A DNA stretch of 64,000 nucleotides from an uncultured bacterium (lineage in GTDB: Bacteria; Desulfobacterota_D; UBA1144; Nemesobacterales; UBA2774), in contig CAWGRW010000009.1 in assembly GCA_963825135.1 (NCBI GenBank), forward strand, positions 1,888,001-1,952,000, read 5' to 3'. The notes under the pieces are model-generated. The model was given only the letters and a program-made list of their open reading frames with translations. It made no database searches and was not told the DNA's origin. This document shows, in pieces, positions 12,779-26,790 of the stretch. Every line of letters begins with the position of its first letter. Within the stretch, counting starts at the first letter, position 1. A program made the translations under genes and the position numbers.

Positions 12779-13720
12779 TCAAGGTAATCTCAGGTGGGCC
12801 ATTGACTCGACAATCTTTTTTGCTCTTCTCGTGAATTTTTGTTTGTAACTTGAGAGTTTGAATAAGGTTGGGTGCTTGTATTTCCATATCCTGAAACGAA
12901 GTGCCTTAAGTAAATCAGCATCTTTAATTCCGTTCCTTGCTAAATATTTTTCAAGCCAGTCGAGATAAAATAGTTCCGCTGAGAGCCATTGGCCTTTTTG
13001 TACAGCGACACTGTAACACGATTCTGGGTGCACTCTGTATAAATCCCAACATGATTCGGACACATATACCGGTGAATTTAGAAATAACTTTGCTTTAAAA
13101 GCCTGATCTTCATGCATACCCGTAAATATTTCTTCAAACCCTCCTATCTCTTCTATAACTCTTTTACGAAACATAGCGTTTGACATTGAAGCCCCTAATA
13201 CATAACCGTATAAATTTAAAATCAGCAGGGTAGGGGGATGGATTACGGTGTTCAGTATTATTGAATTTTTCCGTATCCCGTCGTGCCCGTAGTTATCAAG
13301 CTCCTTATCTTTGTCGTTCCCGGTCCAGCTATACCAGGCTTTAGTATTTCCGTAGACCATGCCTATTTCCGGATGAGATTCCATTATAGAAACTTGTTCT
13401 CGAAGCTTATTCGGCAGCCAGATGTCGTCGGCATCGAGAGTTGCTATGTATTCCCCCCTTGAATTTCGAATTCCCAGATTTCTAGCGGCGCTCAATCCTC
13501 TGTTCGCATGTCCTTCATGCTCGAAGTAAAAAACTTTGTCGGGGTGTCGTTCCTGATAATCAAGCGCAATCTTCGTGCTGCTATCCGTCGAGCCGTCGTC
13601 AACGAGCAGAAGCTCCCAATCGTCATACGTTTGGGCGAATACGCTTTCTAAAGTCTCGGTAATAAACTTTTCTGCGTTGAAAAAACAAATAACGATCGAT
13701 ATAGCGGGTTTCTTAGTCAT
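12779..13720 (-). CDS. Glycosyltransferase family 2
   Basis: SVFAQTY, VDDGSTD, NRGLSAARN, LDADD and ED motifs. Confidence 0.9.
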   Translation of the reverse strand: MTKKPAISIVICFFNAEKFITETLESVFAQTYDDWELLLVDDGSTDSSTKIALDYQERHPDKVFYFEHEGHANRGLSAARNLGIRNSRGEYIATLDADDIWLPNKLREQVSIMESHPEIGMVYGNTKAWYSWTGNDKDKELDNYGHDGIRKNSIILNTVIHPPTLLILNLYGYVLGASMSNAMFRKRVIEEIGGFEEIFTGMHEDQAFKAKLFLNSPVYVSESCWDLYRVHPESCYSVAVQKGQWLSAELFYLDWLEKYLARNGIKDADLLKALRFRIWKYKHPTLFKLSSYKQKFTRRAKKIVESMAHLRLP

Positions 13721-13726
13721 TTTATT

Positions 13727-15055
13727 TCATTCTTCGATTGACCATTTGTGTTCCAATACAAAAAAACATTCGCTCCGGGGAATATTCTCAATACCATAAA
13801 TGATCTCTTCTTCGACCGTGAAATATTCCGCATTAGAAAGATGATAAACCTTTTGTGTTCCGATTAAGAATGTCACATCAACTGCGCATCTGCCGGAAGT
13901 AATTGATACTTTATTAGTTATGCAAGTAATAGTACCTTCATTCGGGAGTGTCTCGGGTATGCCTCCCGAATTATCGCTATCGAGGATTGTGAGGGTTTGG
14001 CCGGTATTAGCATCTTTAATAAAAATGAATACAATCAAATTCCTCACAGGTTTTTCACTTCGGTAACCCACCTTTATTCTTATTCGACTGCTAGGTCGTA
14101 TAGGTTTCCCCGATTCCATGTTATCAATTTGAATAAAAGTGGCCTTAACGCTTCCGTCGCAATTCTTGTCTAGATCACCCCGTTCTTCAAGGGGGATGTA
14201 CTCTCCTCCGCTGACAGATTGTAGGTACTGGTCTACAACTTCTTTCGTGTCTCCGATAGCTTTTAGGCGTCCGTCTTCCAATAAGACCACCCTCTTGCAG
14301 AGCGACAGTATCGCTGCCATGTCATGGGTTACAAAAATAACCGTCCTTCCCTCGGATGAGGCCACCTCGTCCAGCTTCCCGAGGCATTTTTGCTGGAATC
14401 TGGCGTCTCCCACGGCAAGTACCTCGTCAAGTAACAGTATCTCCGGGTCCAGATGAGCAGCTACCGAAAACCCGAGGCGCACGCGCATACCGCTCGAATA
14501 AAATTTAATGGGCGTGTCGATAAAATCTTCGACTCCGGAAAAATCCACAATTTCATTATATTTACGCTCAATTTCACGCTTTTTCATTCCCAGTATTGCG
14601 CCGTTGAGTAATATATTTTCTCTTCCGGTAAGCTCGGGATGAAAGCCTGTCCCTACTTCCAGGAGCGACCCAATACGGCCGTGTATATCAATTCTGCCTT
14701 CAGTCGGTTCGGTTATTCCGGATATTAACTTGAGGAGAGTGCTTTTTCCGGCGCCGTTGCTTCCGATTATCCCGATAATTTCTCCTCTGTTGACGTCGAA
14801 AGTAACATCCTTGAGGGACCATATATAATTGGGTTTGCTGTGGCCGCTTATGCCGGGAAGGCTTCTTTTACTCGGAGGATTCAGTCCGAGGTCCGAACCC
14901 TGTGAACCGTCTTCCCTGTGTTTGCCTCTTTTGAGCCCGGATATGAACCTGGATGCCAGGCTGGTAATGCTTTCCCGCAGCGTATTGTACTTAATTCTTT
15001 CGCCTATCTTGTACTCTTTGCCGATCTTTATGACTTTTATCGCATATTCACTCAT
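13727..15055 (-). CDS. wzt: Polysaccharide ABC transporter ATP-binding subunit with C-terminal Wzt_C-like domain
   Basis: GSNGAGKST, LLEVGTGFHPELTGREN, YSSGM and LLDEVLAVGD; extra C-terminal beta domain. Confidence 0.93.
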   Translation of the reverse strand: MSEYAIKVIKIGKEYKIGERIKYNTLRESITSLASRFISGLKRGKHREDGSQGSDLGLNPPSKRSLPGISGHSKPNYIWSLKDVTFDVNRGEIIGIIGSNGAGKSTLLKLISGITEPTEGRIDIHGRIGSLLEVGTGFHPELTGRENILLNGAILGMKKREIERKYNEIVDFSGVEDFIDTPIKFYSSGMRVRLGFSVAAHLDPEILLLDEVLAVGDARFQQKCLGKLDEVASSEGRTVIFVTHDMAAILSLCKRVVLLEDGRLKAIGDTKEVVDQYLQSVSGGEYIPLEERGDLDKNCDGSVKATFIQIDNMESGKPIRPSSRIRIKVGYRSEKPVRNLIVFIFIKDANTGQTLTILDSDNSGGIPETLPNEGTITCITNKVSITSGRCAVDVTFLIGTQKVYHLSNAEYFTVEEEIIYGIENIPRSECFFVLEHKWSIEE

Positions 15056-15056
15056 A

Positions 15057-15965
15057 TTAGATTATGTCCGCGAATGTTCTTTCCATGCGTCTGAAATAAA
15101 TTAATCCTCCGACCAGCAGTACTATGACAATGATTATGGAAGCGGCTATGAGATACCAGTCCGGGTTCGACTTTCCGAGCAGTGCCCACCTGAACCCTTC
15201 GACGACTCCCGTCATCGGGTTTAACCCGTAAACAAAGCGCCATTTCTCAGGTACCAGACTGCTCGGGTATGCGATAGGCGTAAGGAATAACCAGATTTGC
15301 GTAAGGAAAGGCACAGTATAACGCACATCCCTGTATTTTACGTTAATTGCCGACAACCAGAGGCTAACTGAAAATGTAGCCGCAGTAGCAAGAATTAGAA
15401 AGAACGGTAATGTAACAATAGCCAACGTGGGCGTTATCCTGTAGTAGAACATCATGCCTATCAATACCAGAAAAGCCACACAGAAATCGACCAGCCCGCC
15501 TGATATCGAAGATAAAGGCATAATCAGCCGAGGGAAGTATATTTTTGTTATCAGATTGCTGTTGTTGACGAGACTGTTGCTTGAGTTGGTCACACCATTG
15601 GCAAAGAGCTGCCAAGGCAAAAGTGCTGCATACGAAAATATTGGATACGGTACTCCGTCCGACGGTATCTTTGCAAGGTTCCCGAAGAAAATTGTAAATA
15701 CAACCATTGTCAAAAGGGGTTGCAGAACGGCCCAGACTACCCCCAGAGCGGTTTGTTTGTAACGTACTTTGAGATCCCGCCACGTAAGGAAGTAGATGAG
15801 CTCATGGTATTCCAAGAGCTCGTTCAGTCTCAGAGAAAGTCCTTTGCTGGGTTCACGTACGGCAAAGAGTTTTCCGTGTTTTGAATCTGCCCTATCCTCG
15901 GAATTGTCGGCCGAGACTACTTCGTTTTGATTATTTATCTTTGACGTAACAGTTGTTTTCTCCAT
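15057..15965 (-). CDS. wzm: Polysaccharide ABC transporter permease
   Basis: RDLKVRYKQTALGVVW, LITKIYFPR, YRDV and LNPMTGVVEGFR; 1 bp from wzt. Confidence 0.93.
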   Translation of the reverse strand: MEKTTVTSKINNQNEVVSADNSEDRADSKHGKLFAVREPSKGLSLRLNELLEYHELIYFLTWRDLKVRYKQTALGVVWAVLQPLLTMVVFTIFFGNLAKIPSDGVPYPIFSYAALLPWQLFANGVTNSSNSLVNNSNLITKIYFPRLIMPLSSISGGLVDFCVAFLVLIGMMFYYRITPTLAIVTLPFFLILATAATFSVSLWLSAINVKYRDVRYTVPFLTQIWLFLTPIAYPSSLVPEKWRFVYGLNPMTGVVEGFRWALLGKSNPDWYLIAASIIIVIVLLVGGLIYFRRMERTFADII

Positions 15966-16650: not shown

Positions 16651-18153
16651 GTGATATCCGGGATGTACGAATCCGCAATTTCATACGGCGCGGCAGCTAT
16701 ACTTCTTGTCCTTCTGGTTATTCCGCTGTTGCGGCGGCTGGCGTTCTTAATAGGCTATGTCGACCGTCCGGCTGGCCGGAAACGGCATGAGGAAGCGGTG
16801 CCTCCAATCGGCGGGTTGGCGATTTTCCCTATATTTATACTCTTGTTATTTCTCTCAGGGACTGAACCACCAAGCATTTGGATAATTACGGCTCTGGGCA
16901 TAATACTCGCGGTCGGCGCAATAGACGATGGTTTCTCTTTACCAGCTTGGGTTAAATTGATTGTACAGATCGGTGTGGCTCTTTTAATAGTCGTACCCGG
17001 GCACATACGCGTTTATGGACTCGGCGATCTCTTCGGGTTTGGCGATATGGGGATGAGCTGGATGGGAATACCATTCACTGTTATAGCTGTAGTGCTCGTG
17101 ATAAACGCCATCAATCTGATAGACGGCCTTGACGGTCTGGCAGGCGGTTTGGGCCTGATAATTGTATTTTGGTTAGTGGTCAGCAGTATCGTAGCGGGTG
17201 ATTCGAATAACCTTATGGTGACATCTATATTTGCGGGTGCGCTGATTGGTTTTCTAAATTACAACCTCAGGCATAGGTTTCGGGAAAAAGCGAGTGTTTT
17301 TCTTGGTAATTCCGGCAGTCAGGCGTTGGGTTTGACATTGGCCTGGCTTACGATTGAATCCTCTCAAGGGGGAACCGCTATAATCCGGCCGATCTCAGTT
17401 GCTTGGCTCCTGGCTTTGCCGATTTACGATATTTGCGGACAGTTTGCACGTCGCGTGTACCTGGGACGGCATCCATTCGATCCGGACAGGCACCATTTCC
17501 ACCACCACTTTTTGTACGCCGGTTTGTCCGATGGCCAGGCAACCGCAATCATTCTTGCCCTGTCTTTTTTTGCCGGAATAGTGGGAGTGGGCGGACTGTG
17601 GATAGGTATTCCGGAGAGTGTCCTCACTTATGTGTGGATCGTATTCCTCTTCATTCATATCTACATGTCCATGCTTCCTCTCCGCTACCTGGAATTGCTG
17701 CTGCCATTGCGTGGCAAGAGCATCGATAATATCATAGGCCAGTTGATCCTGGAGTCAGGAGCGATAAGCGAAGATCAGCTTCTCGATGCGCTCGAATATC
17801 AGGGGAAATCAGGAGGGAAGATTGGCGAAATTCTGGTTGAGAAGGGATATATCTCGGACTCAAAACTAATTTACTTTTTGAACCTGCAAGTTGTTAGAAA
17901 TGCCAATGCTAATATCGTAAATGTGAATAAGAAAAAAGATTTCCTGCTGGGAGAAATAATGTTGACTTCAAAGATGATAACAAAGAAACAATTAGAAGAA
18001 GGGTTGAACTACCAAAGGACAAAGGGCGGATGGATCGGGCAGGTGTTGTTGAGTATGGGGTATATTTCGGAATCTGAATTGAGAGATTGTTTGGAAAAGC
18101 AGATACAATACAGGTCTGCGGGCCTGGCTTCGGATGTTGACATCGAATTATAA
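16651..18153 (+). CDS. wecA: WecA/MraY-family undecaprenyl-phosphate HexNAc-1-phosphate transferase fused to two C-terminal MshEN-like modules
   Basis: VDRP..RKRH...P.IGGLAI, GAIDD, NAINLIDGLDGLA, VFLGNSGS and DRHHFHH motifs. The tail carries four xxGxxhhxxGhIxxxxLxxxLxxQ repeats. Confidence 0.85.
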   Translation: MISGMYESAISYGAAAILLVLLVIPLLRRLAFLIGYVDRPAGRKRHEEAVPPIGGLAIFPIFILLLFLSGTEPPSIWIITALGIILAVGAIDDGFSLPAWVKLIVQIGVALLIVVPGHIRVYGLGDLFGFGDMGMSWMGIPFTVIAVVLVINAINLIDGLDGLAGGLGLIIVFWLVVSSIVAGDSNNLMVTSIFAGALIGFLNYNLRHRFREKASVFLGNSGSQALGLTLAWLTIESSQGGTAIIRPISVAWLLALPIYDICGQFARRVYLGRHPFDPDRHHFHHHFLYAGLSDGQATAIILALSFFAGIVGVGGLWIGIPESVLTYVWIVFLFIHIYMSMLPLRYLELLLPLRGKSIDNIIGQLILESGAISEDQLLDALEYQGKSGGKIGEILVEKGYISDSKLIYFLNLQVVRNANANIVNVNKKKDFLLGEIMLTSKMITKKQLEEGLNYQRTKGGWIGQVLLSMGYISESELRDCLEKQIQYRSAGLASDVDIEL

Positions 18154-18165
18154 CCGAGGAGCGGT

Positions 18166-19542
18166 CTATTCGTTTTCTCGCTCTGACAACTGGTATTGCA
18201 AACTGTTTGCCAAACCGAGAAGAAAGATAAAGTAGTAGACGTTAGCGGGGATCTGGAAATTGAATTCTGTAACTGCATGAACGAATAGGCCGAACATTCC
18301 GCTCAAGCATCCCAATAGAATGTAATATCGCAGCGGGTCTTTTCGCGGAGAAATCTTTCTTATCTTCCAGATTGCACGTTTATAAAATGATATCAATGCA
18401 AAGAGAACTAAAAAGAAGCCGATGAGGCCGGTTTCGGCCGCAAGCTCCAGATAGTCGTTATGCGCGTGGTCGTACACGTAAGGCCAATACGCATCTTTTT
18501 TATAGAGTGTATATGCTAAACTGAAGGTTCCTAAACCTGTTCCGAACGCAGGAAAATCTTCAATTAGTTTTATTGTGTCTTTCCATATATACGTACGAAG
18601 CGGAAGGGACTCCTCCGTCTCCGAGAATTTTTCTATTACGGGATCCAGTCCGATCCAGAATGAGTAGAGGATAATTATCACAAAAAATACGCCTAGTAAC
18701 CATTTTACCGTACTACTCTTCTTATTCAGGGAAATAAGAAAATATAAGAAAAGTATTGCGGCCGCGAATGAAAATATTGCACCTCGTGATTGAGAGAGTA
18801 TGAGGCTTATGGCGATGAGGGCGGTCACGAACAGCAGGAGTAGATTGCTTGGGGACTGCGTTTTTATGGCTTGTTTCCAGTTGTTTAATTGAAAGTGTTC
18901 TTTAGTGCTGAGATGGATCAAATAGCCCAAAAACACCGGAGTTACCAGGAGCAATAATCCGGCGAAGTGGTTGGGATTGATATAGCTACCGGATGCGGGG
19001 ACGCTTGTTCCGCTAGCGATGTATTGCAGAAGGCCGATGAGTGATTCAATCATTGCCACCGTAAAGACGATCCAGAAGAATCTCTTTATCTGTTTGCTTG
19101 TCCGTATGTAATCTGTCGTAACCAGAAAAAACGCTGCATATGACAAATAAAGAAGCAGTTTTTGATTGGTTACAAAAGGATAAAGACTTATTGTATTAGG
19201 GAGTTTGATTTGACCGCCGAATATATGGTTGAGAGCCTCACTCTTACTCTGCCAAAGCATGAAAGAATGAGGTGACAGTATGCTGAGTATCGAGTCGGGG
19301 AGTCGGATTGACTGAAAGATAATTAGGAAGAAAAACAGCCCCATCGGTACATATAAAGGAGATTGCGGCAGCCGAATTCTTCTCTTGATGATTTTACCCG
19401 TGAGCCAGAATCCGAACGTAAAGAACGCAATGATTTCAAAAAGAGCGACGGACCATGTCTCAACATTGCCAAAAGGTAATGGTGAGAGCAATATTAATAC
19501 TATTCCGCAGCTAATAATAAATGTAATTAGTCTTTCAAGCAT
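18166..19542 (-). CDS. O-antigen ligase family protein (WaaL / O-oligosaccharyltransferase-like)
   Basis: GSYINPNHFAG, LSQSRGA, R..IW, GTGLGTF and HAHNDYLE motifs; polytopic. Confidence 0.88.
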   Translation of the reverse strand: MLERLITFIISCGIVLILLSPLPFGNVETWSVALFEIIAFFTFGFWLTGKIIKRRIRLPQSPLYVPMGLFFFLIIFQSIRLPDSILSILSPHSFMLWQSKSEALNHIFGGQIKLPNTISLYPFVTNQKLLLYLSYAAFFLVTTDYIRTSKQIKRFFWIVFTVAMIESLIGLLQYIASGTSVPASGSYINPNHFAGLLLLVTPVFLGYLIHLSTKEHFQLNNWKQAIKTQSPSNLLLLFVTALIAISLILSQSRGAIFSFAAAILFLYFLISLNKKSSTVKWLLGVFFVIIILYSFWIGLDPVIEKFSETEESLPLRTYIWKDTIKLIEDFPAFGTGLGTFSLAYTLYKKDAYWPYVYDHAHNDYLELAAETGLIGFFLVLFALISFYKRAIWKIRKISPRKDPLRYYILLGCLSGMFGLFVHAVTEFNFQIPANVYYFIFLLGLANSLQYQLSERENE

Positions 19543-19564: not shown

Positions 19565-20815
19565 TTATTTTTCTTTCTCCAGAGCGACGTTATCGACCCA
19601 CACAATTCCCGAAATGTTATTGCTAAATTTGTCGGTTTTGTGACGTCTTAATTTCAAAACTATGGTGCTGCAGTCCTTAGGAGTTGTAAATGAGAATGTC
19701 ACAAGATGCCAATCCGTTGTACCGCGAACCTGCTCGGACTCAGCGTGAAGATTATTGTTGTTTACGCATTCTGCTTCCCATAGGAGTCCGTTCTTCGTAG
19801 AAATATCTTTACTTTTCATGAGTGATGACAATTTATAATTCGTCTCATCGTCTACAGGTATAAATTGATATAAATGATAAAAATCGACATTTTGCTTTCC
19901 ATCGAATTCGATTTTGATTGAACGGCCGTTATCGGTGTGGTCAATGTTTTCTGAAATTTTTGCTCCTTCCACATTGCCCAGTCTCCAATCAAATCCTGCA
20001 TTTCTAATCTTCTGATTGAAGTCCCCGTTCCATACGCCTTCCCATTTGCCTAATCGGTCGGCCCAGACATTTTTCGCGGTGGGTAGTTCTCTTTCGTTAA
20101 TTAAAAATACGACATATCTGAGAAATATGTCTTCCGGTATTTCACCTATACCCATACTGGATAATTTTTCCCAAGTGACCTTCGCTTCGGAGACCCTGTG
20201 TGTACTAATAAGGAAGTGCAGGTACGCTGGGAGGGCGTTATCAGAAACTGCCTCCCGGACTTTATCCCCGTTTCTGAGTGACTGCCATAAGATTGGAAAT
20301 GCTTTATAACGCCTGTGCCGGTCATAGGCAATTACGGCTCGTAAATTATTGATTAGGACTTCTTCGTCTCCGAGCCTCGATGCGAGCATGCCGGCTGCCC
20401 ACCTGAGGGATACTACACCGGGAGCGAGCTCGGTTGCCTTGTTGAGCGTATATACTGCAAGATCCCTCTTGCGATCCTGCAAAAGGAATTCGGCCAGATA
20501 ATACCAGTAGTTGTAGTCTAAGGGGTTAAGTTCAAGGGCTTTTTTGTAAAGATCGTAGACCCGGCCACGCGGGGCGGACAAATCGTAATTTGCGTAATAT
20601 TCTCCAAGCATGAAATAGAACTGGGAATTTCCGCTCTCGATTCTTATGGCTTCGTTGAAGCCGTTAGGGGGAGGATCCGTCGCGTAAACGTAAGACAGCC
20701 AGTTCTTGGCTGCGCTCCAGGAAAGAAATAGTGTGATGGATATCGTGAGGAGGATATATGTATAAAGGGAAAACCTGGAACCTATTGTAAATTTCATATA
20801 CCCGGAGTTACACAA
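19565..20815 (-). CDS. Membrane-anchored TPR protein with C-terminal carbohydrate-binding-like domain (start may be 20797)
   Basis: N-terminal TM; YKKALELNP/ATELAP TPR-like repeats; WNGDF...GFDW...GTTDW...F.TP...G.VWVDNV jelly-roll pattern. Confidence 0.65.
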   Translation of the reverse strand: MCNSGYMKFTIGSRFSLYTYILLTISITLFLSWSAAKNWLSYVYATDPPPNGFNEAIRIESGNSQFYFMLGEYYANYDLSAPRGRVYDLYKKALELNPLDYNYWYYLAEFLLQDRKRDLAVYTLNKATELAPGVVSLRWAAGMLASRLGDEEVLINNLRAVIAYDRHRRYKAFPILWQSLRNGDKVREAVSDNALPAYLHFLISTHRVSEAKVTWEKLSSMGIGEIPEDIFLRYVVFLINERELPTAKNVWADRLGKWEGVWNGDFNQKIRNAGFDWRLGNVEGAKISENIDHTDNGRSIKIEFDGKQNVDFYHLYQFIPVDDETNYKLSSLMKSKDISTKNGLLWEAECVNNNNLHAESEQVRGTTDWHLVTFSFTTPKDCSTIVLKLRRHKTDKFSNNISGIVWVDNVALEKEK

Positions 20816-20896: not shown

Positions 20897-23266
20897 CTAA
20901 ACAGATTTACCCAAATCGTCCCGTTTGGTTTTCTCAACGGATTTCGCGGCTGCGAGCTTTTTCTTTTCATCGTCTTCGCCGTAATAGTAGTTGTACGATT
21001 TATAGTAATAACTGTTTTGATTGAGCTCTATGCCGTTGACTATCACTCCCAGGAAATTTGCCTTCAAGCTCCACAGCCTGTCTATCAGCTCCCTTATAGA
21101 GTTCTTGGGTGTTTTGCCTGCCCTTACAACTACCGCGACTCCGTCGACAAGGCTCGAAATGATATGGGAGTCGACAAACCCCAGTGCCGGAGGACCGTCA
21201 ACTATTATATAATCATAGTCGTCCGTTAGAGTTTGAATTAACTCTCTCATACGGTTAGAACCCAAGAGTTCGGCCGGGTTGACGGGTATCGGACCTACGG
21301 GAAGTACATACAAGTTGGGTATCTCCCCCTGTGAAATAACGTCGCTCAAATTCGAATTTCCGGTCAGGAAGCTGCTGAGTCCGTTACCGTTATTGCCGAG
21401 GATAGTTCCGATTCTCGGACGCCTGAGGTCGGCCTCCAGAAGGAGAACTTTGCTTCCTGCCTGAGCGAAAGAAGACGCGAGGTTAATCGACACGGTTGTT
21501 TTTCCTTCTGCCGGGAAGCAGCTCGTGATTAGAATCGAACGGGGCGGCTTGCCGGGAGTGGAAAGGAGAAGAGAAGTCCTGATGGTTCTGAATGATTCGG
21601 CAATATGAGATCTAGGATCAAGTAGAAATAATTTCTCAACAGGTGAATCCAAACTGTCCGTTTGATTGGATTCAAACACTCCTCCGAGGACCGGCAGTTT
21701 GAGCTTGTCCCTCACTTCTTCAGACGTTTTGACCGTATTGTCGAAATACTCCAGGAAAAAGGCCAGGAAAATGCCGCCGCCTATTCCGAGGATACACGCT
21801 ATAAGCAGGTTCAAAGTCACATTGGGTTTAAACGGTATTATCGGAATTTGCGCGTAGTCAACAACTTGTATATTGCTAGCTGTTATGGCCGATGACACTT
21901 CGGTTTCTTTTAGTCTTTGCAAAAGGCTGTTATAAATAGTTTCATTCGATTCAACCCCTCTTTTGAGTATGTTGTATTGAATCGATTTGTCATTTAGTGC
22001 GGAAGCAAGAGTCTTTTGCTTCTGATAACTTTCCCTGAGAGTTTCTTCTTTTTTAAGCGAGGCGTCGTAATCTGATTTGACGGATGAGGCTATGCTGTTT
22101 TGAGCTTCTTCGATTTTTGCTTGCAATTCGGCTACCCTCGCCCCAAGCTCTTTCACCTTCGGATATCCTGATTTAAAAGTCGAGCTCAGCTGGCTGTACT
22201 CCGACTGTGCCCGAGCATGCTCTGCTTTCAGGTTCTGGATATAGGGGTCGTTCATTACCATTGACAATGAGTCTATGTTGCCGTCTAACGCATGCTTATA
22301 AAGTGATTCCTTCTCCAGTCTCGAGGTTTCTGCCTTTGCGAGCGCGTCGTTGAGTTCCGAGAACGTGTGGTAAGTTATGTTCATCTTTTCGTCGAGGGAA
22401 ACAATGTCGTTGCTCTTGGCGAACCCGTTCAATTTCTCTTCGGATAGTTCAAGGTTAGACTGTGCCTGTTCAATCTGTTTTTTAAGGAAATCCCTGCCCT
22501 GTTTTGTAGCGTCCAGTTTCCTGTTCAGGAGCCAGTTGATGAACGTATCGCTTAAAGCATTGACCGCTTCTGCCGCGAGTTTTCGGTCATGTGATACGAA
22601 ACTTACATCGACAAGGCGCGAGTTGCCTACGGGGGTTATCAGGAGCCTGCTGGTAAAAGCATTGATCAAATCGTCTTCTTGACCCGCCTGGGCGATCTCT
22701 TCATCAGCGCCGGATGTCTGCGTCTCCTGCGGTCTCGTGGTTATCTTTTTTATTCCGTTGAGAATGTTATCTATCAGACCGTTAACACTCGACATTGCCC
22801 TGGAAATCAGACTCTGCTTCTTTTTTTCGGGGTTGAAATCCGGGTTCTCCGCCAGATTAAGTTTTTCGACTACTTGTTTTGCCAAAGAGTTGCTTTTTAA
22901 GAGAAGGTACTGAGTTTCATAGAACTCTTCGGATTTGGTCTCGAGTTCGACCACCTGGTCGAAATTCACGACTTTAGGGTTTTCCAGAGAAATTTCGAGC
23001 TTCGCTGTGGCCTTGTATTCGGGCTCCGTCAAGAAAGTCGATATCAGAGTCGATATCAGTACGATGACGAAAAATACAATGATTACTTTCTTTCTCCTGA
23101 GTACCACCTCGATGTAGCGGTGGATAGCGCTTTCTTCATCTACCGGATAAGCCCTCAATATGTCCGGCGTATTAGGATAAGCGCGAAGGGACCTCTCTTC
23201 GTTTTCAGGTACGAGGTTCCGGCCTTTGCCGTCACCGATCATTTTATCTCTATCGTTATTTTCCAT
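20897..23266 (-). CDS. wzc: Polysaccharide co-polymerase / tyrosine autokinase (Wzc/GumC)
   Basis: Two TMs flanking a coiled-coil periplasmic domain; AESFRTIRT, Walker A PAEGKTT, EADLRRP, IVDGPP; C-terminal Tyr cluster YYYKSYNYYY. Confidence 0.93.
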   Translation of the reverse strand: MENNDRDKMIGDGKGRNLVPENEERSLRAYPNTPDILRAYPVDEESAIHRYIEVVLRRKKVIIVFFVIVLISTLISTFLTEPEYKATAKLEISLENPKVVNFDQVVELETKSEEFYETQYLLLKSNSLAKQVVEKLNLAENPDFNPEKKKQSLISRAMSSVNGLIDNILNGIKKITTRPQETQTSGADEEIAQAGQEDDLINAFTSRLLITPVGNSRLVDVSFVSHDRKLAAEAVNALSDTFINWLLNRKLDATKQGRDFLKKQIEQAQSNLELSEEKLNGFAKSNDIVSLDEKMNITYHTFSELNDALAKAETSRLEKESLYKHALDGNIDSLSMVMNDPYIQNLKAEHARAQSEYSQLSSTFKSGYPKVKELGARVAELQAKIEEAQNSIASSVKSDYDASLKKEETLRESYQKQKTLASALNDKSIQYNILKRGVESNETIYNSLLQRLKETEVSSAITASNIQVVDYAQIPIIPFKPNVTLNLLIACILGIGGGIFLAFFLEYFDNTVKTSEEVRDKLKLPVLGGVFESNQTDSLDSPVEKLFLLDPRSHIAESFRTIRTSLLLSTPGKPPRSILITSCFPAEGKTTVSINLASSFAQAGSKVLLLEADLRRPRIGTILGNNGNGLSSFLTGNSNLSDVISQGEIPNLYVLPVGPIPVNPAELLGSNRMRELIQTLTDDYDYIIVDGPPALGFVDSHIISSLVDGVAVVVRAGKTPKNSIRELIDRLWSLKANFLGVIVNGIELNQNSYYYKSYNYYYGEDDEKKKLAAAKSVEKTKRDDLGKSV

Positions 23267-23298: not shown

Positions 23299-24315
23299 TT
23301 ACTGTACGCCTACGCTAAACGGCGGGAAAAACAATCCGAGCCTAATAGCGTCGAAGAAGCTCTTGATGGCATTTTTGCCTACGACTATTGCGTCCTGGTC
23401 CTTCAAAACTATATCCGCAGAATTGCCCTCTTTAATGCCGTCCAGGTCTACGGCCGTAACCTGCACCTGACCATTTTCTTTCCTCATCAGACTGACATCG
23501 GACGCCTCCGCTGTTTTGGCGAGTCCTCCTGCCGCTGTGATCGCCTGACTGACGGTCATATTGGTTTCCAATGGGATGGTGCCGGGTTTAATTACGGCTC
23601 CGTCAACATATACTACACCTGCTTCCGGTATGTATACAACATCGCCCATATGAATAGGAATATTCAGATCCGATTTGCCCTCGTCAAGCAATTCTCCGAG
23701 ATCAATTTCAACCGCTTTCTTCTGACCTTCCTTGCCCTTTCGCGTAACGTATGCCATTTCGCTTGCATCCGCGTTTAGTCCGCCGGCCATTGCAATAGCG
23801 TCCAGCAGGTTCCCCTTACCCAGCAGTTCATACGTCCCCGGACTCTTTACGCTGCCAATTACAGCTACCCTCTGACTTTTGAATTCTTTAATGGACACGA
23901 CAACATGTGGGTCGTTCATGTATTTTTCCGTCAATTGTTCCTTTATCCTTTCTTCCGCTTCCAAAGCAGTAAGACCGCCGACCTCCACCGTCCCGAGCAG
24001 GGGGAATGAAATCATATTCTTTGAGTTTACCCTCGCCTCCGTATCCAGATCCGGGGCCTCTACGACTTTAATTTCCAGGAGGTCTCCGGGCCCGAGAAGG
24101 TAATCATCGGATGCTGACGAACTAAAGGTTTCCTGAATTAATTTACGGTTTAATTCCTGATTCTCGGTGTTAACCTCCCTTTGTGCCTGTGGAAGGGTAC
24201 GCGTACCCCCTGCGGTCGAGCCGCCGCCGCAGGCGGTGCAAAAGACACCCGCGAGTAAGAGTAAAGCTATCCCTGTTTTGATATAGCGATTCAATTTACA
24301 CCAATACCCCACCAT
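23299..24315 (-). CDS. wza: Polysaccharide export lipoprotein (Wza/OPX family, SLBB repeats)
   Basis: Lipobox-like CTAC; YLLGPGDLL, ISFPLLG.V...GLT, V.G.V..PG.Y and AIAMAGGL repeats. Confidence 0.88.
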   Translation of the reverse strand: MVGYWCKLNRYIKTGIALLLLAGVFCTACGGGSTAGGTRTLPQAQREVNTENQELNRKLIQETFSSSASDDYLLGPGDLLEIKVVEAPDLDTEARVNSKNMISFPLLGTVEVGGLTALEAEERIKEQLTEKYMNDPHVVVSIKEFKSQRVAVIGSVKSPGTYELLGKGNLLDAIAMAGGLNADASEMAYVTRKGKEGQKKAVEIDLGELLDEGKSDLNIPIHMGDVVYIPEAGVVYVDGAVIKPGTIPLETNMTVSQAITAAGGLAKTAEASDVSLMRKENGQVQVTAVDLDGIKEGNSADIVLKDQDAIVVGKNAIKSFFDAIRLGLFFPPFSVGVQ

Positions 24316-24400: not shown

Positions 24401-25156
24401 CTACTCGGTTCTGAGAACGTTGCTGGCGTTATGATCTCCGCCGCCGCCGCAAAGGGCCCCGCATACAGCACCGGTAACCGCAGCCGCACCGACAGCCGCC
24501 GGAATCAATAACGGAGCCGCTGCTGGTGAACAACACCCCGATTTATTTTCAAATGAATCATAGGGGTTTTGTTTATCAGGACTCGAAGCGGCATCTCCCG
24601 GTTCGAGAGTTTGAGTGTTCATATTGGTCTTGAAATTTGCGTATCCGTCGAATTGAATTGCTGAAGTAACGTTCTCTTTTACGTTGGTTCTGCCGTCGAC
24701 ATACTCAGGCGACCCCGCTTTAACTGCGCTCTCGTCCGGAGGAATTGTATCGGCCGCGGGAGTATCAACCAGGAAACCGCTTTTCGGATTGAAGCAATAG
24801 CAGACCTCTCCCTGGTCGCCCTGAGTCAGTAACAGCCCGGTAAATCCATCCCCTATGGACTGTACTTTGAATACAGATTTCGGCTCAATCACGTATTTGC
24901 CGCCGTTGACGATCAGTGTCGCTTTGCCGTTATCCAATGTATCAATGATCATGTCAGGGTAGATAGGATAGCTCTCGTCCTTTAATGTGACCTCGCTCCC
25001 GTCTATAAGTGTAACCTTTACTTCGTCTGAGACTTTCATGGTTCCGAGAGAAACCTGAGCGTCAAGTGAAGTCTGTGCAAAGACAACAGCGACCGGCTGA
25101 AGAAATAAAAAGCCCGCCACAAAAAACGACAACGTCATCTTCAATGTTCTGGTCAT
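24401..25156 (-). CDS. Secreted Cys-rich hypothetical protein with C-terminal hydrophobic anchor; first gene of the wza-wzc run
   Basis: ATG 25156 follows a long AGGAGAGGAGGG SD. Signal peptide MTRTLK...VFA; C-terminus GCCSPAAAPLLIPAAVGAAAVTGAVCGALCGGGGDHNASNVLRTE. Confidence 0.7.
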   Translation of the reverse strand: MTRTLKMTLSFFVAGFLFLQPVAVVFAQTSLDAQVSLGTMKVSDEVKVTLIDGSEVTLKDESYPIYPDMIIDTLDNGKATLIVNGGKYVIEPKSVFKVQSIGDGFTGLLLTQGDQGEVCYCFNPKSGFLVDTPAADTIPPDESAVKAGSPEYVDGRTNVKENVTSAIQFDGYANFKTNMNTQTLEPGDAASSPDKQNPYDSFENKSGCCSPAAAPLLIPAAVGAAAVTGAVCGALCGGGGDHNASNVLRTE

Positions 25157-25190
25157 GTTTGTAAACCCTCCTCTCCTGAATCTATTATAT

Positions 25191-25219
25191 AGTATAGAAA
25201 TGGGGTTAGATAGAGTCAA
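25191..25219 (-). promoter_or_regulatory. Sigma70-type promoter for the 25156-wza-wzc run
   Basis: TTGACT-17 nt-TATACT on the minus strand, 35 nt upstream of the ATG. Confidence 0.65.
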
Positions 25220-25503: not shown

Positions 25504-26790
25504 TTATTTCAGTTTCAGTTCCTGTCTAATCTTTTTAATGTCGTAGTAAGGTTCTCCGCGCTCCCTGGCGAGTTTATAAATATTTTCGAGCTCGATCAAT
25601 ACCAGATTGAGCTTTTTCCTGCCATCGGTTGTTACGGTAGCTTCTCTGGGCGTCAAGCCACTCAGCACGGCTAGCGGCATGTCCACCCATTCGGCGTAGT
25701 ATTCGTCTAATTTCTTGTCCAGCTCCTTTTTACTTTTTACTCCCGGGGGCAGTCTGTGCAGTTTGCCGGCTTCTTTTTTCGTTTTGTCCGCGTATGATTC
25801 GATTCCCTTTATATTGTCTTCAAGGTGTTCTATAAAACCTCTGAGCTCTCTCTCGATCGTCGATTTTGCGGTATTCAGCATTTCAACGGAATAGGAAACT
25901 ATTTTTAACGTATTGTCGTCGAGCTCTAAAGAACCTGCTATATAATTTCCTCCCCCGTTCTCCAGACTGAATACCCTGATCTCTTCGTTAGTCCCGCTTA
26001 TCTGTTTGAATAGCTGTATTCCCTCGAGTTTTTCAAGCGTTTTATTCCTGTCCTTTACTTTGTATGTCGCCGACGCCAGGACTAACTCCTCGCCTTCGGG
26101 CGTAATCAGCCGAAGATTATTTGCAAGATAATCGGCATAGCCGGAGATCTTATAGCCCAGGTCTCTCAGGAATGTCTCTTTATTGCCGCCTTCGTCAAGG
26201 GATTTTGCGTAGAGATCGAATTCTCTGTCGAAATAATCGAGGATGATATTTTTAAACGCTGCCGGATATGCGGATACGATCCCCGAGAAATATGTGTCTG
26301 TCCCCGCCTTGAGGGGCCTTGCCCCTATGATATCCGAGGTCTTAAGCTGCTTAGATGCTGAAGAGTCGCGGATCCTGTATTCTTTGTTAAAGAACAGGTC
26401 CCTTATATCGCAGTATCCGCCCGGCGCTATTTCTATGATTTCGAAAAAACTGTATAGGCTCGCGAGCCACCCCTTTATTATGGATTCTTCCGGATGGGTG
26501 AGAGTTTCTCGCTCCTCATTATAGAATCGCTCTATTACCCTCTCGCCCGTATCGAGCAATCTGAAGTCGTGAAGGAACCAGTCGAAGAACTTCTCGAAAG
26601 TGATATCCCCGATCCGCTCGTCTATGACGTCATCCGCAATAAAGTCGGGGTCGTCCTTCCATATGTAAAAGGCTTCCCCCAGCTGGGACTGTATCTCCGG
26701 GCGCTCGGAATACTCGACCAGCTTCGCGCGGAGATCGCTCCCCGCCTGATCGAATTTGTATTGTGTGATATCGATTACTTTATCTTTCAT
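25504..26790 (-). CDS. Hypothetical protein resembling SEC-C-associated proteins, with C-terminal MbcA/ParS-like WxxxPxxxLxGxTP motif
   Basis: FFDWFLHD, SFFEI and IIGAR patterns; C-terminal WVDMPLAVLSGLTPREA. No SEC-C Cys motif is present. Confidence 0.5.
   Translation of the reverse strand: MKDKVIDITQYKFDQAGSDLRAKLVEYSERPEIQSQLGEAFYIWKDDPDFIADDVIDERIGDITFEKFFDWFLHDFRLLDTGERVIERFYNEERETLTHPEESIIKGWLASLYSFFEIIEIAPGGYCDIRDLFFNKEYRIRDSSASKQLKTSDIIGARPLKAGTDTYFSGIVSAYPAAFKNIILDYFDREFDLYAKSLDEGGNKETFLRDLGYKISGYADYLANNLRLITPEGEELVLASATYKVKDRNKTLEKLEGIQLFKQISGTNEEIRVFSLENGGGNYIAGSLELDDNTLKIVSYSVEMLNTAKSTIERELRGFIEHLEDNIKGIESYADKTKKEAGKLHRLPPGVKSKKELDKKLDEYYAEWVDMPLAVLSGLTPREATVTTDGRKKLNLVLIELENIYKLARERGEPYYDIKKIRQELKLK

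Follow-up and report, generated by a model that had tools for sequence, protein, structure and literature searches.

A WecA-type phosphoglycosyl transferase with a tandem MshEN_N tail as a candidate cyclic di-GMP gate on glycan initiation

Results

The open reading frame (ORF) at 16651..18153 (+) of the 64,000-nucleotide stretch of contig CAWGRW010000009.1 analysed here (the window; host genome G000) encodes a WecA-type polytopic phosphoglycosyl transferase (PGT) followed by two MshEN_N units. The product has 500 aa, or 496 aa from the ATG at 16663. Its catalytic membrane domain (16654..17673, +), with 11 predicted membrane helices, matches PF00953 of Pfam at aa 78-237 (E 5e-34). A juxtamembrane helix and the fusion junction (…RGKSIDN; 17677..17730, +) connect this domain to unit 1 (17731..17889, +; aa 361-413), from which a variable linker of 18 aa and low model confidence (17890..17943, +) leads to unit 2 (17944..18102, +; aa 432-484). 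The initial annotation of this DNA had described two 53-aa units with an exact 24-5-24 spacing, and translation gives both as quoted. The units are identical at 22 of 53 residues, and Lys replaces Gly10 in the first half of unit 2.

The tail scores 105.9 bits (cut-off 38, E 6.3e-31) in two stretches with NF053729, the NCBIfam model of an MshE-related cyclic di-GMP (c-di-GMP) motif, and the single units score 63 and 57.6 bits. A phmmer search of the PDB with the tail found PilF (6f8l, 2.6e-11) and MshE (5htl, 7.5e-7). PF05157, the model of the full MshEN/GSPII domain, has no match in the fusion; the tail is all-helical and lacks the α/β C-terminal subdomain. The enterobacterial WecA model TIGR02380 gives 209.3 bits, under its curated cut-off of 326.05. 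No match to a glycosyltransferase family 2 (GT2) domain was found in the fusion, and NF008411 aligns to the tail only, with 32.6 bits against a cut-off of 1170. At least 20 protein clusters among the 120 matches listed of 736 combine WecA with the tail, at 58-100% identity and with a conserved junction; 18 of the 20 are longer than 420 aa, and two are N-terminally short. The clusters come from JGI, ENA, Logan and NCBI, and one is labelled Candidatus Dadabacteria. With the NF053729 score and these clusters, the WecA-MshEN architecture first proposed from the window by itself proves to be real and conserved.

An AlphaFold model of the WecA form was made from a 22-row alignment (pLDDT, the predicted local distance difference test, 78.4), and the top Foldseek fold matches of its membrane part are MraY and DPAGT1. 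The model tail aligns with MshE (5htl_B) over 54 columns at 0.8 Å root-mean-square deviation (rmsd) and Foldseek probability 1.0, with a whole-chain E-value of just 0.38. In models of this form and of the monotopic form described below, the MshEN_N units have the four-helix fold and match known structures at 0.5-1.0 Å rmsd. The WecA-form model has 11 membrane helices, with Lys/Arg-rich loops after helices 1, 7, 9 and 11. The HHFHHH motif (17491..17508, +; aa 281-286) lies in a cytoplasmic loop between helices 9 and 10, so the last two helices would bring the C-terminus back to the cytoplasmic face, on which catalysis takes place. Helix count and loop charges strongly predict a cytoplasmic tail, a point that the initial annotation had singled out for checking. 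A periplasmic tail was considered and is disfavoured by the same two features, which constitute a prediction made without a dedicated topology predictor.

The catalytic motifs D92/D93, K102, N152, DGLDG (158-162) and HHFHHH are all kept in the WecA domain. N220, in FLGNSGS (17308..17310, +), aligns with the Asp of the MraY VFMGD motif, a Mg-ligand position. Within the same 120 listed matches, this F(M/L)GD position is Asn in 21 of 21 sequences of the WecA-MshEN lineage and Asp in 97 of the 99 others; of the remaining two, one has no motif match and the other a spurious one. The Asp-to-Asn change arose once. We take N220 to be equivalent to Asp252 of human DPAGT1, from the MraY alignment and the DPAGT1 motif. 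In a study of the VFMGD motif of WecA, the D217N enzyme was reportedly more active. The Asp252Asn mutant of human DPAGT1 is fivefold more active, and Asp252Ala is reduced to 7% (PMC6218659). Because Asp252Asn activates DPAGT1, Asn220 need not kill the enzyme, and from its sequence we infer priming transferase activity for the WecA domain.

The four halves of the tail begin with I, K, L and W in place of Arg, as the initial annotation correctly reported, and thus depart from the 2016 Arg consensus. In the extended 2024 consensus for position 1 (R/K/L or large hydrophobic), K and L are covered literally, and I and W through the paper's general statement only. Conservation was scored on 30 distinct sequences per unit, after identical rows had been merged and one unit 2 with a frameshift and one fragment from a contig end had been excluded. 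Gly3, Leu17 and Gln24 are invariant (30/30 per unit) in all four half-motifs, and Leu21 is Ile in one sequence per unit. The ligand-contact columns are 95-97% conserved, compared with 64-71% for the non-key columns. All four halves of the window's protein contain Gly3, Leu17, Leu21, Gln24 and a hydrophobic residue 2. There is no S/T/D at -5, unlike in the GSPII-A domain of Thermus thermophilus PilF, and Ser is invariant at -4 in unit 1 of the WecA form. Asp/Glu at -2 matches PilF GSPII-B, a 6 nM binder.

In MshE, the contacts that recognise guanine come from the backbone amides of Gly3 and residue 4, Arg1 contributes stacking only, and mutants of the charged residues shift the affinity at most fivefold (PMC5013675). 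The isolated MshEN_N binds c-di-GMP at 0.35 µM and leaves c-di-AMP unbound, and cyclic GMP-AMP (cGAMP) binds MshE weakly, with a KD of 330 µM (PMC5013675). PilF GSPII-B has Lys/Leu for both Arg and a KD of 6 nM; K167R binds 25-fold and L196R 4-fold more weakly, and a hydrophobic first residue is, according to the authors, a predictor of very high affinity (PMC11731258). Because GSPII-B binds at 6 nM without Arg, and restored Arg weakens binding, the doubt over the missing Arg is reversed. The earlier suggestion that their loss points to another ligand or to weak binding is overturned by Arg-free GSPII-B together with the invariant Gly3. Judged by its residues, the tail is strongly predicted to bind c-di-GMP.

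The same tail was found on an unrelated enzyme in sister Dadabacteria genomes. A search of 41 related genomes found ORFs of 354-385 aa that align to the tail only. Their N-terminal part matches Bac_transf (PF02397) and is thus a PglC-like monotopic PGT; tandem MshEN_N comes after it. All 28 such proteins keep the catalytic motifs KFRSM and LDELPQ. The DE dyad and the PglC fold are present in this form, and the tail is joined at the same I-D-x position as in the WecA form. A model of the monotopic form, of low confidence (pLDDT 62.7), matches PglC, WbaP, MshE and PilF GSPII-B. Among 120 genomes of the phylum, many of them incomplete, 22 match the tail profile at 1e-15; 19 of these carry PGT fusions, and 3 carry other MshEN proteins. 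The WecA form occurs in 5/120 genomes, all of family f1, and the monotopic form in 14/120, with 9 in f1 and 5 in f7. Three of the five f7 fusions (L018, L133, L134) have a single MshEN_N unit.

Whichever enzyme is carried, the gene occupies the same slot in 11/11 intact f1 loci examined (10 and the window), flanked by wzm-wzt and, on the opposite side, by Wzy_C, TPR-CBM, wzc and wza. Two genes, which we take to resemble a FIST-type protein and a sensor partner, are inserted between the PGT and wzm at L107:11644-13925 (G013). The f7 locus L114, with a single-unit fusion, has a different gene order. In G009 the flanks are 85-88% DNA-identical to the window, yet the gene is monotopic, and only the tail can be aligned (68%). 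The sequence comparisons show the tail to be a portable module, not a WecA-specific allosteric domain. Several individual loci were also noted. The two units of L130:1303-2415 (G041) are nearly identical, suggesting recent duplication or conversion. In L017 / L109 (G007) a frameshift, from sequencing error or decay, breaks the second half of unit 2. At a contig end, L115:6900-7648 (G009:C16) combines a monotopic start, a frameshifted WecA 3' part and a monotopic-type tail; this mosaic is a remnant of the swap or else arose as a chimera in assembly (G009 has 7% contamination).

A tree of the tails was made from 43 rows, excluding near-duplicates, one row with a frameshift and one mosaic row, and was rooted on four f7-type monotopic tails as the outgroup. 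The tails of the WecA form and of the f1 monotopic form make up one clade (100/100), in which the WecA-form tails are monophyletic (100/99). Support for monophyly of the f1 monotopic tails is 50/10, so 'nested within' and 'sister to' are indistinguishable for the WecA-form tails. In a quick tree of the WecA domain (80 rows, without 7 loci that were short or redundant), the domain lies inside a clade of tail-less Micavibrio-like sequences (Shimodaira–Hasegawa-like approximate likelihood ratio test, 99), and its nearest tail-less relatives among the 120 listed matches are up to 59% identical. The WecA-form carriers fall at three separate points of a Wzc tree of 11 loci, and their monophyly is rejected (approximately unbiased test, p 3.7e-6). 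The trees indicate that the monotopic fusion is ancestral. Most simply, a small monotopic PGT would have gained one, then two MshEN_N units. In a single capture in family f1, a Micavibrio-like WecA domain would then have replaced the catalytic part at the I-D-x junction, with the tail retained, and the new allele, now scattered over the host tree, would have replaced the old gene at the slot in several lineages. Differential loss from an ancestor with both genes may have occurred in place of whole-gene replacement. That the tail outlived a change of catalytic fold indicates selection on its link to priming as such.

No WecA-MshEN protein outside this lineage was found among the 120 matches listed of 736 or the 120 of 140, which favour close relatives, and distant fusions are possible. 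Likewise, among the best 80 of 551 WecA loci, an MshEN_N unit is present solely in L026 and L027, with no fusion outside the lineage. A hidden Markov model of the unit matched P0133 and P0141 among 149 of the best 150 of 88,004 representatives (P0130, part of the query, was left out). The fused architecture is absent from the ESM Atlas matches listed, a result that is uninformative for small clusters. Six of the best 80 of 551 loci encode WecA with a C-terminal PilZ domain, five of them above the Pfam cut-off, and RxxxR and (D/N)xSxxG are kept in all six (L065:1607-3079, L066:9914-11410, L071:2549-4051, L079:9941-11443, L092:9944-11443 and L099:9126-10718). The hosts are Desulfocapsaceae/Desulfobulbaceae, mostly Desulfocapsaceae, and include Desulfosediminicola flagellatus; one cultured strain has a complete genome. 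The WecA-PilZ sequences form a distant clade in the WecA tree and are independent of the MshEN fusion.

Further extended PGTs were seen in the same searches. In P0141 a long spacer lies between two MshEN half-motifs, and VanZ and a monotopic PGT follow in this order. The monotopic PGTs P0249 and P0261 are extended at the C-terminus by a long hydrophobic stretch, VanZ-like by eye. Two tandem monotopic PGT domains occur in P0132, P0139, P0140, P0150 and P0154. At L055:9929-11482 and L062:9965-11500 (Nitrosomonas, Accumulibacter), WecA carries a soluble C-terminal domain with repeated DRR motifs and no Pfam match. A soluble C-terminal domain of ~130-170 aa follows WecA in L073, L074, L080, L089, L093, L098, L101, L103, L081, L083, L084, L091 and L096, from Desulfobacterales, Syntrophobacteraceae and Myxococcota; none of the 7 scanned of these 13 has a Pfam match above the cut-off. 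This domain is possibly another regulatory tail. A C-terminal multi-helix membrane domain follows WecA in L054, L056-L061, L063, L064, L068, L075 and L082, mainly from Desulfuromonadales.

The fusion is the sole PGT of its locus. On one side lies a divergent operon (12779..15965, -) of a Wzm-like ABC-2 permease (15057-15965, -), a Wzt-like ATPase (13727-15055, -) and a GT2 (12779-13720, -). On the other side, a Wzy_C / O-antigen-ligase-like gene (18166..19542, -) is convergent with the fusion and is followed by genes for a protein with tetratricopeptide repeats (TPR) and a region like a carbohydrate-binding module (CBM) (19565..20815, -), a Wzc-like co-polymerase / tyrosine kinase (20897..23266, -), a Wza-like export protein (23299..24315, -) and a 272-aa protein without Pfam or NCBIfam match that is conserved in the locus (24401..25219, -). 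The ORFs at 24401-25219 and 25504-26790 have no Pfam match and are kept beside wza in the f1 loci examined. The GC content is 0.35-0.47 in the polysaccharide region (window 1-26000) and 0.50-0.57 downstream; within the fusion it is 0.50 in the WecA part and 0.42 in the tail. There is no Rfam match in the window, and a promoter and terminator scan of it was near chance level.

Elsewhere, G000 contains one further PF00953 gene of 369 aa, the same length as MraY in relatives, and one small monotopic PGT ~280 kb from the fusion. It encodes five GGDEF domains, all with GHxxGD (signatures GGEEF/GGDEF/SGDEF/GGDEI/GGDEI), together with 2 HD-GYP motifs, 2 PilZ domains and 5 DAC domains; no EAL domain was found in this genome, which is 94% complete. 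GGDEF genes are present in 23 of 24 f1 relatives, with or without the fusion. Other MshEN motifs of G000, labelled by eye, lie in a PilB-like ATPase with Gln for the first Arg (G000:C9:1631653), a protein with a receiver-like C-terminus (G000:C9:1343510) and a long protein with a DnaJ-like segment (G000:C9:608571).

Discussion

We suggest that the fusion is the initiating PGT of the Wzm/Wzt and Wza/Wzc locus and that its tail is a c-di-GMP receptor which switches the enzyme on. From the sequences, we give this reading, a c-di-GMP gate on the first committed glycan step with a fold-independent mechanism, a probability of roughly 0.55. The 11-helix domain would move HexNAc-1-phosphate onto undecaprenyl phosphate (Und-P). 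Each four-helix unit would bind one c-di-GMP through its Leu/Ile clusters, Gln24 and the backbone amides of Gly3; the stacking for which MshE uses Arg would come from a hydrophobic residue or Lys. Binding would then lift a brake imposed by the unliganded tail, or drive tail-mediated assembly of the active enzyme. Since one tail is found on two unrelated folds, the coupling is probably fold-independent, by steric occlusion at the membrane face or by self-association; a fitted allosteric pocket is less likely because an 11-helix PGT and the PglC fold cannot share one. Dimerisation has been proposed as an activation route of large monotopic PGTs (PMC12802240). Switching on is also the direction that precedent favours: activation of a glycosyltransferase by MshEN is established for NfrB, whose function requires both ligand binding and the glycosyltransferase site (PMC8669469). 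A triple-Leu mutant of MshE is unable to bind and is constitutively active (PMC5013675), which suggests that the unliganded domain is the brake.

Several observations weigh against the proposed gate. Its direction, activation, is taken from analogy. Residue 2 of the second half of unit 1, a contact position, is Thr in 6/18 WecA-form sequences, and Gly10 is kept in 3/4 halves, varying between Lys, Asn and Arg in the first half of unit 2. PilF GSPII-A is near-consensus and yet does not bind, since an N-capped helix 1 and the C-subdomain block its pocket (PMC12002112). Ser357, at -4 of unit 1, is invariant in 20/20 sequences of the WecA form, and the model begins helix 1 at 358; unit 1 of this form may therefore be capped, though off the GSPII-A register. 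The co-occurrence of GGDEF genes is uninformative because they are present with or without the fusion. The docking site of the tail is visible in neither model, and that of the monotopic form is of low confidence. Finally, for a tail that serves two unrelated folds, docking or localisation is as fitting a role as catalytic gating.

The last point leads to a different role for a c-di-GMP-binding tail, in which the catalytic rate is unchanged and the tail sets the place or partners of the enzyme, such as Wzc, the Wzt ATPase or a local diguanylate cyclase. Retention of the tail across two unrelated folds, while the neighbouring export genes are unchanged, speaks for docking, and in NfrB the cyclase that supplies the ligand interacts with the enzyme directly (PMC8669469). 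However, the single-unit f7 fusions stand in another gene order (L114), so no fixed neighbour is required, and no partner has been identified. We regard docking without gating as unlikely.

It is improbable that the tail binds no nucleotide at all and is a stable protein-interaction pad. There is precedent for such a pad in PilF GSPII-A (PMC12002112), Ser357 is a possible helix cap in unit 1 of the WecA form, and the window's protein has no Arg at any leading position. Against this, conservation in both units of both forms is highest at the ligand-contact residues, among them Gly3 and surface Gln24. The tail also lacks a C-terminal subdomain that could lock the pocket, and Asp/Glu occupies -2 as in GSPII-B.

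The WecA domain could also be a pseudo-enzyme and the protein a membrane-anchored c-di-GMP receptor or sink. The near-universal Asp is Asn in all 21 lineage members, and the small monotopic PGT ~280 kb away in G000 could prime in trans. However, the same substitution activates DPAGT1 fivefold (PMC6218659), if the two positions are equivalent, the remaining catalytic motifs are all intact, and the gene fills the slot of a monotopic PGT in which KFRSM and LDELPQ are intact (28/28). A catalytically dead WecA domain is thus very improbable.

A different cyclic dinucleotide as ligand, c-di-AMP or 3'3'-cGAMP, seems a remote possibility. The leading Arg are replaced, G000 has 5 DAC domains, and MshE binds cGAMP weakly; however, the Gly3 backbone amides exclude adenine in MshE (PMC5013675), and Gly3 is invariant here. 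At the position where Ser marks Hypr enzymes, the GGDEF-domain enzymes that form cGAMP, all 5 GGDEF domains have Asp. An assembly chimera, which the initial annotation had named as one outcome that would overturn it and for which the mosaic contig end L115 of one relative (G009, 7% contamination) might be cited, or an annotation artefact can be dismissed, because 20 clusters from independent sources share a conserved junction and the fusion is intact in 5 genomes from independent assemblies.

The c-di-GMP-gated PGT proposed here is most readily compared with E. coli NfrB, an inner-membrane glycan enzyme with a cytoplasmic MshEN domain that binds c-di-GMP with a KD of about 1 µM and is needed for function (PMC8669469). 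NfrB is a processive GT2 synthase, and its MshEN is complete, with both N and C subdomains; the fusion is an Und-P-priming PGT with two bare MshEN_N units. The 53-residue, 24-5-24 four-helix unit is that of the N-domain of V. cholerae MshE (5htl; PMC5013675) and of PilF GSPII-B (8pdk; PMC11731258), and the latter likewise has Arg-free leading positions and an acidic residue at -2 (PMC11731258). The MshE and PilF units are N-terminal to secretion ATPases and have a C-subdomain; those of the fusion are C-terminal, in tandem, on a transferase. A bare MshEN_N in a Wza/Wzc-type pathway is also found in Methylobacillus EpsG (MshEN_N-AAA_31, a Wzc-type kinase, TIGR03029; PMC5013675), as one unit on the chain-length kinase and not on the priming enzyme. 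The catalytic domain shares its fold, 11 helices and the DD, NxxNxxDGxDG and HHH motifs with the WecA/MraY/DPAGT1 family, and differs in that Asn replaces the FxGD Asp, that a cytoplasmic tail of 145 aa is present and that the score is under the TIGR02380 cut-off. Post-translational control at an initiating PGT, which rations Und-P, is described for M. xanthus EpsZ-EpsW, S. aureus CapM and the DUF of S. enterica WbaP; these monotopic PGTs use a response regulator, Tyr phosphorylation or UMP sensing, and none has a fused second-messenger receptor in the excerpts (PMC12802240, PMC10942596).

Supplementary Table 4 of the MshEN study, in the part available, gives GT2 and Wzc-type kinase fusions and no PGT (PMC5013675). 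No description of a PGT-MshEN or PGT-PilZ protein was found in the literature searched, whose coverage excludes most subscription papers and the main network survey of monotopic PGTs; the three listed papers in which MshEN and WecA appear together are on NfrB. The main text of PMC11626204 has no c-di-GMP, MshE or PilZ, and the excerpts of PMC10942596 and bioRxiv 814665 mention none of the three. Thus, the component families are known, and the architecture, the control point and the swap are new relative to the literature searched. We raise, tentatively, the wider idea that initiating PGTs are a general, undescribed control point for c-di-GMP in Wzx/Wzy- and ABC-type glycan synthesis, at which an MshEN plug-in switch gates both PGT superfamilies in Dadabacteria, having outlasted the exchange of one for the other, and PilZ serves elsewhere. 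In this view, Asn220 may have adjusted the acquired WecA domain to working with a brake. Control by c-di-GMP is well characterised for synthase-dependent systems, and post-translational control of Wzx/Wzy pathways is incompletely understood (PMC12802240).

The tail should be a natural Arg-free, possibly high-affinity, c-di-GMP receptor. The soluble tail is ~135 aa long, and one sensor on two unrelated enzymes, with one- and two-unit variants, separates sensing from coupling. In the history suggested by the trees, the first sugar can change while the control stays. Priming draws on a small Und-P pool that is common with peptidoglycan. If the proposed gate is correct, a receptor fused to the priming enzyme would be a direct route from a biofilm signal to the decision to commit Und-P.

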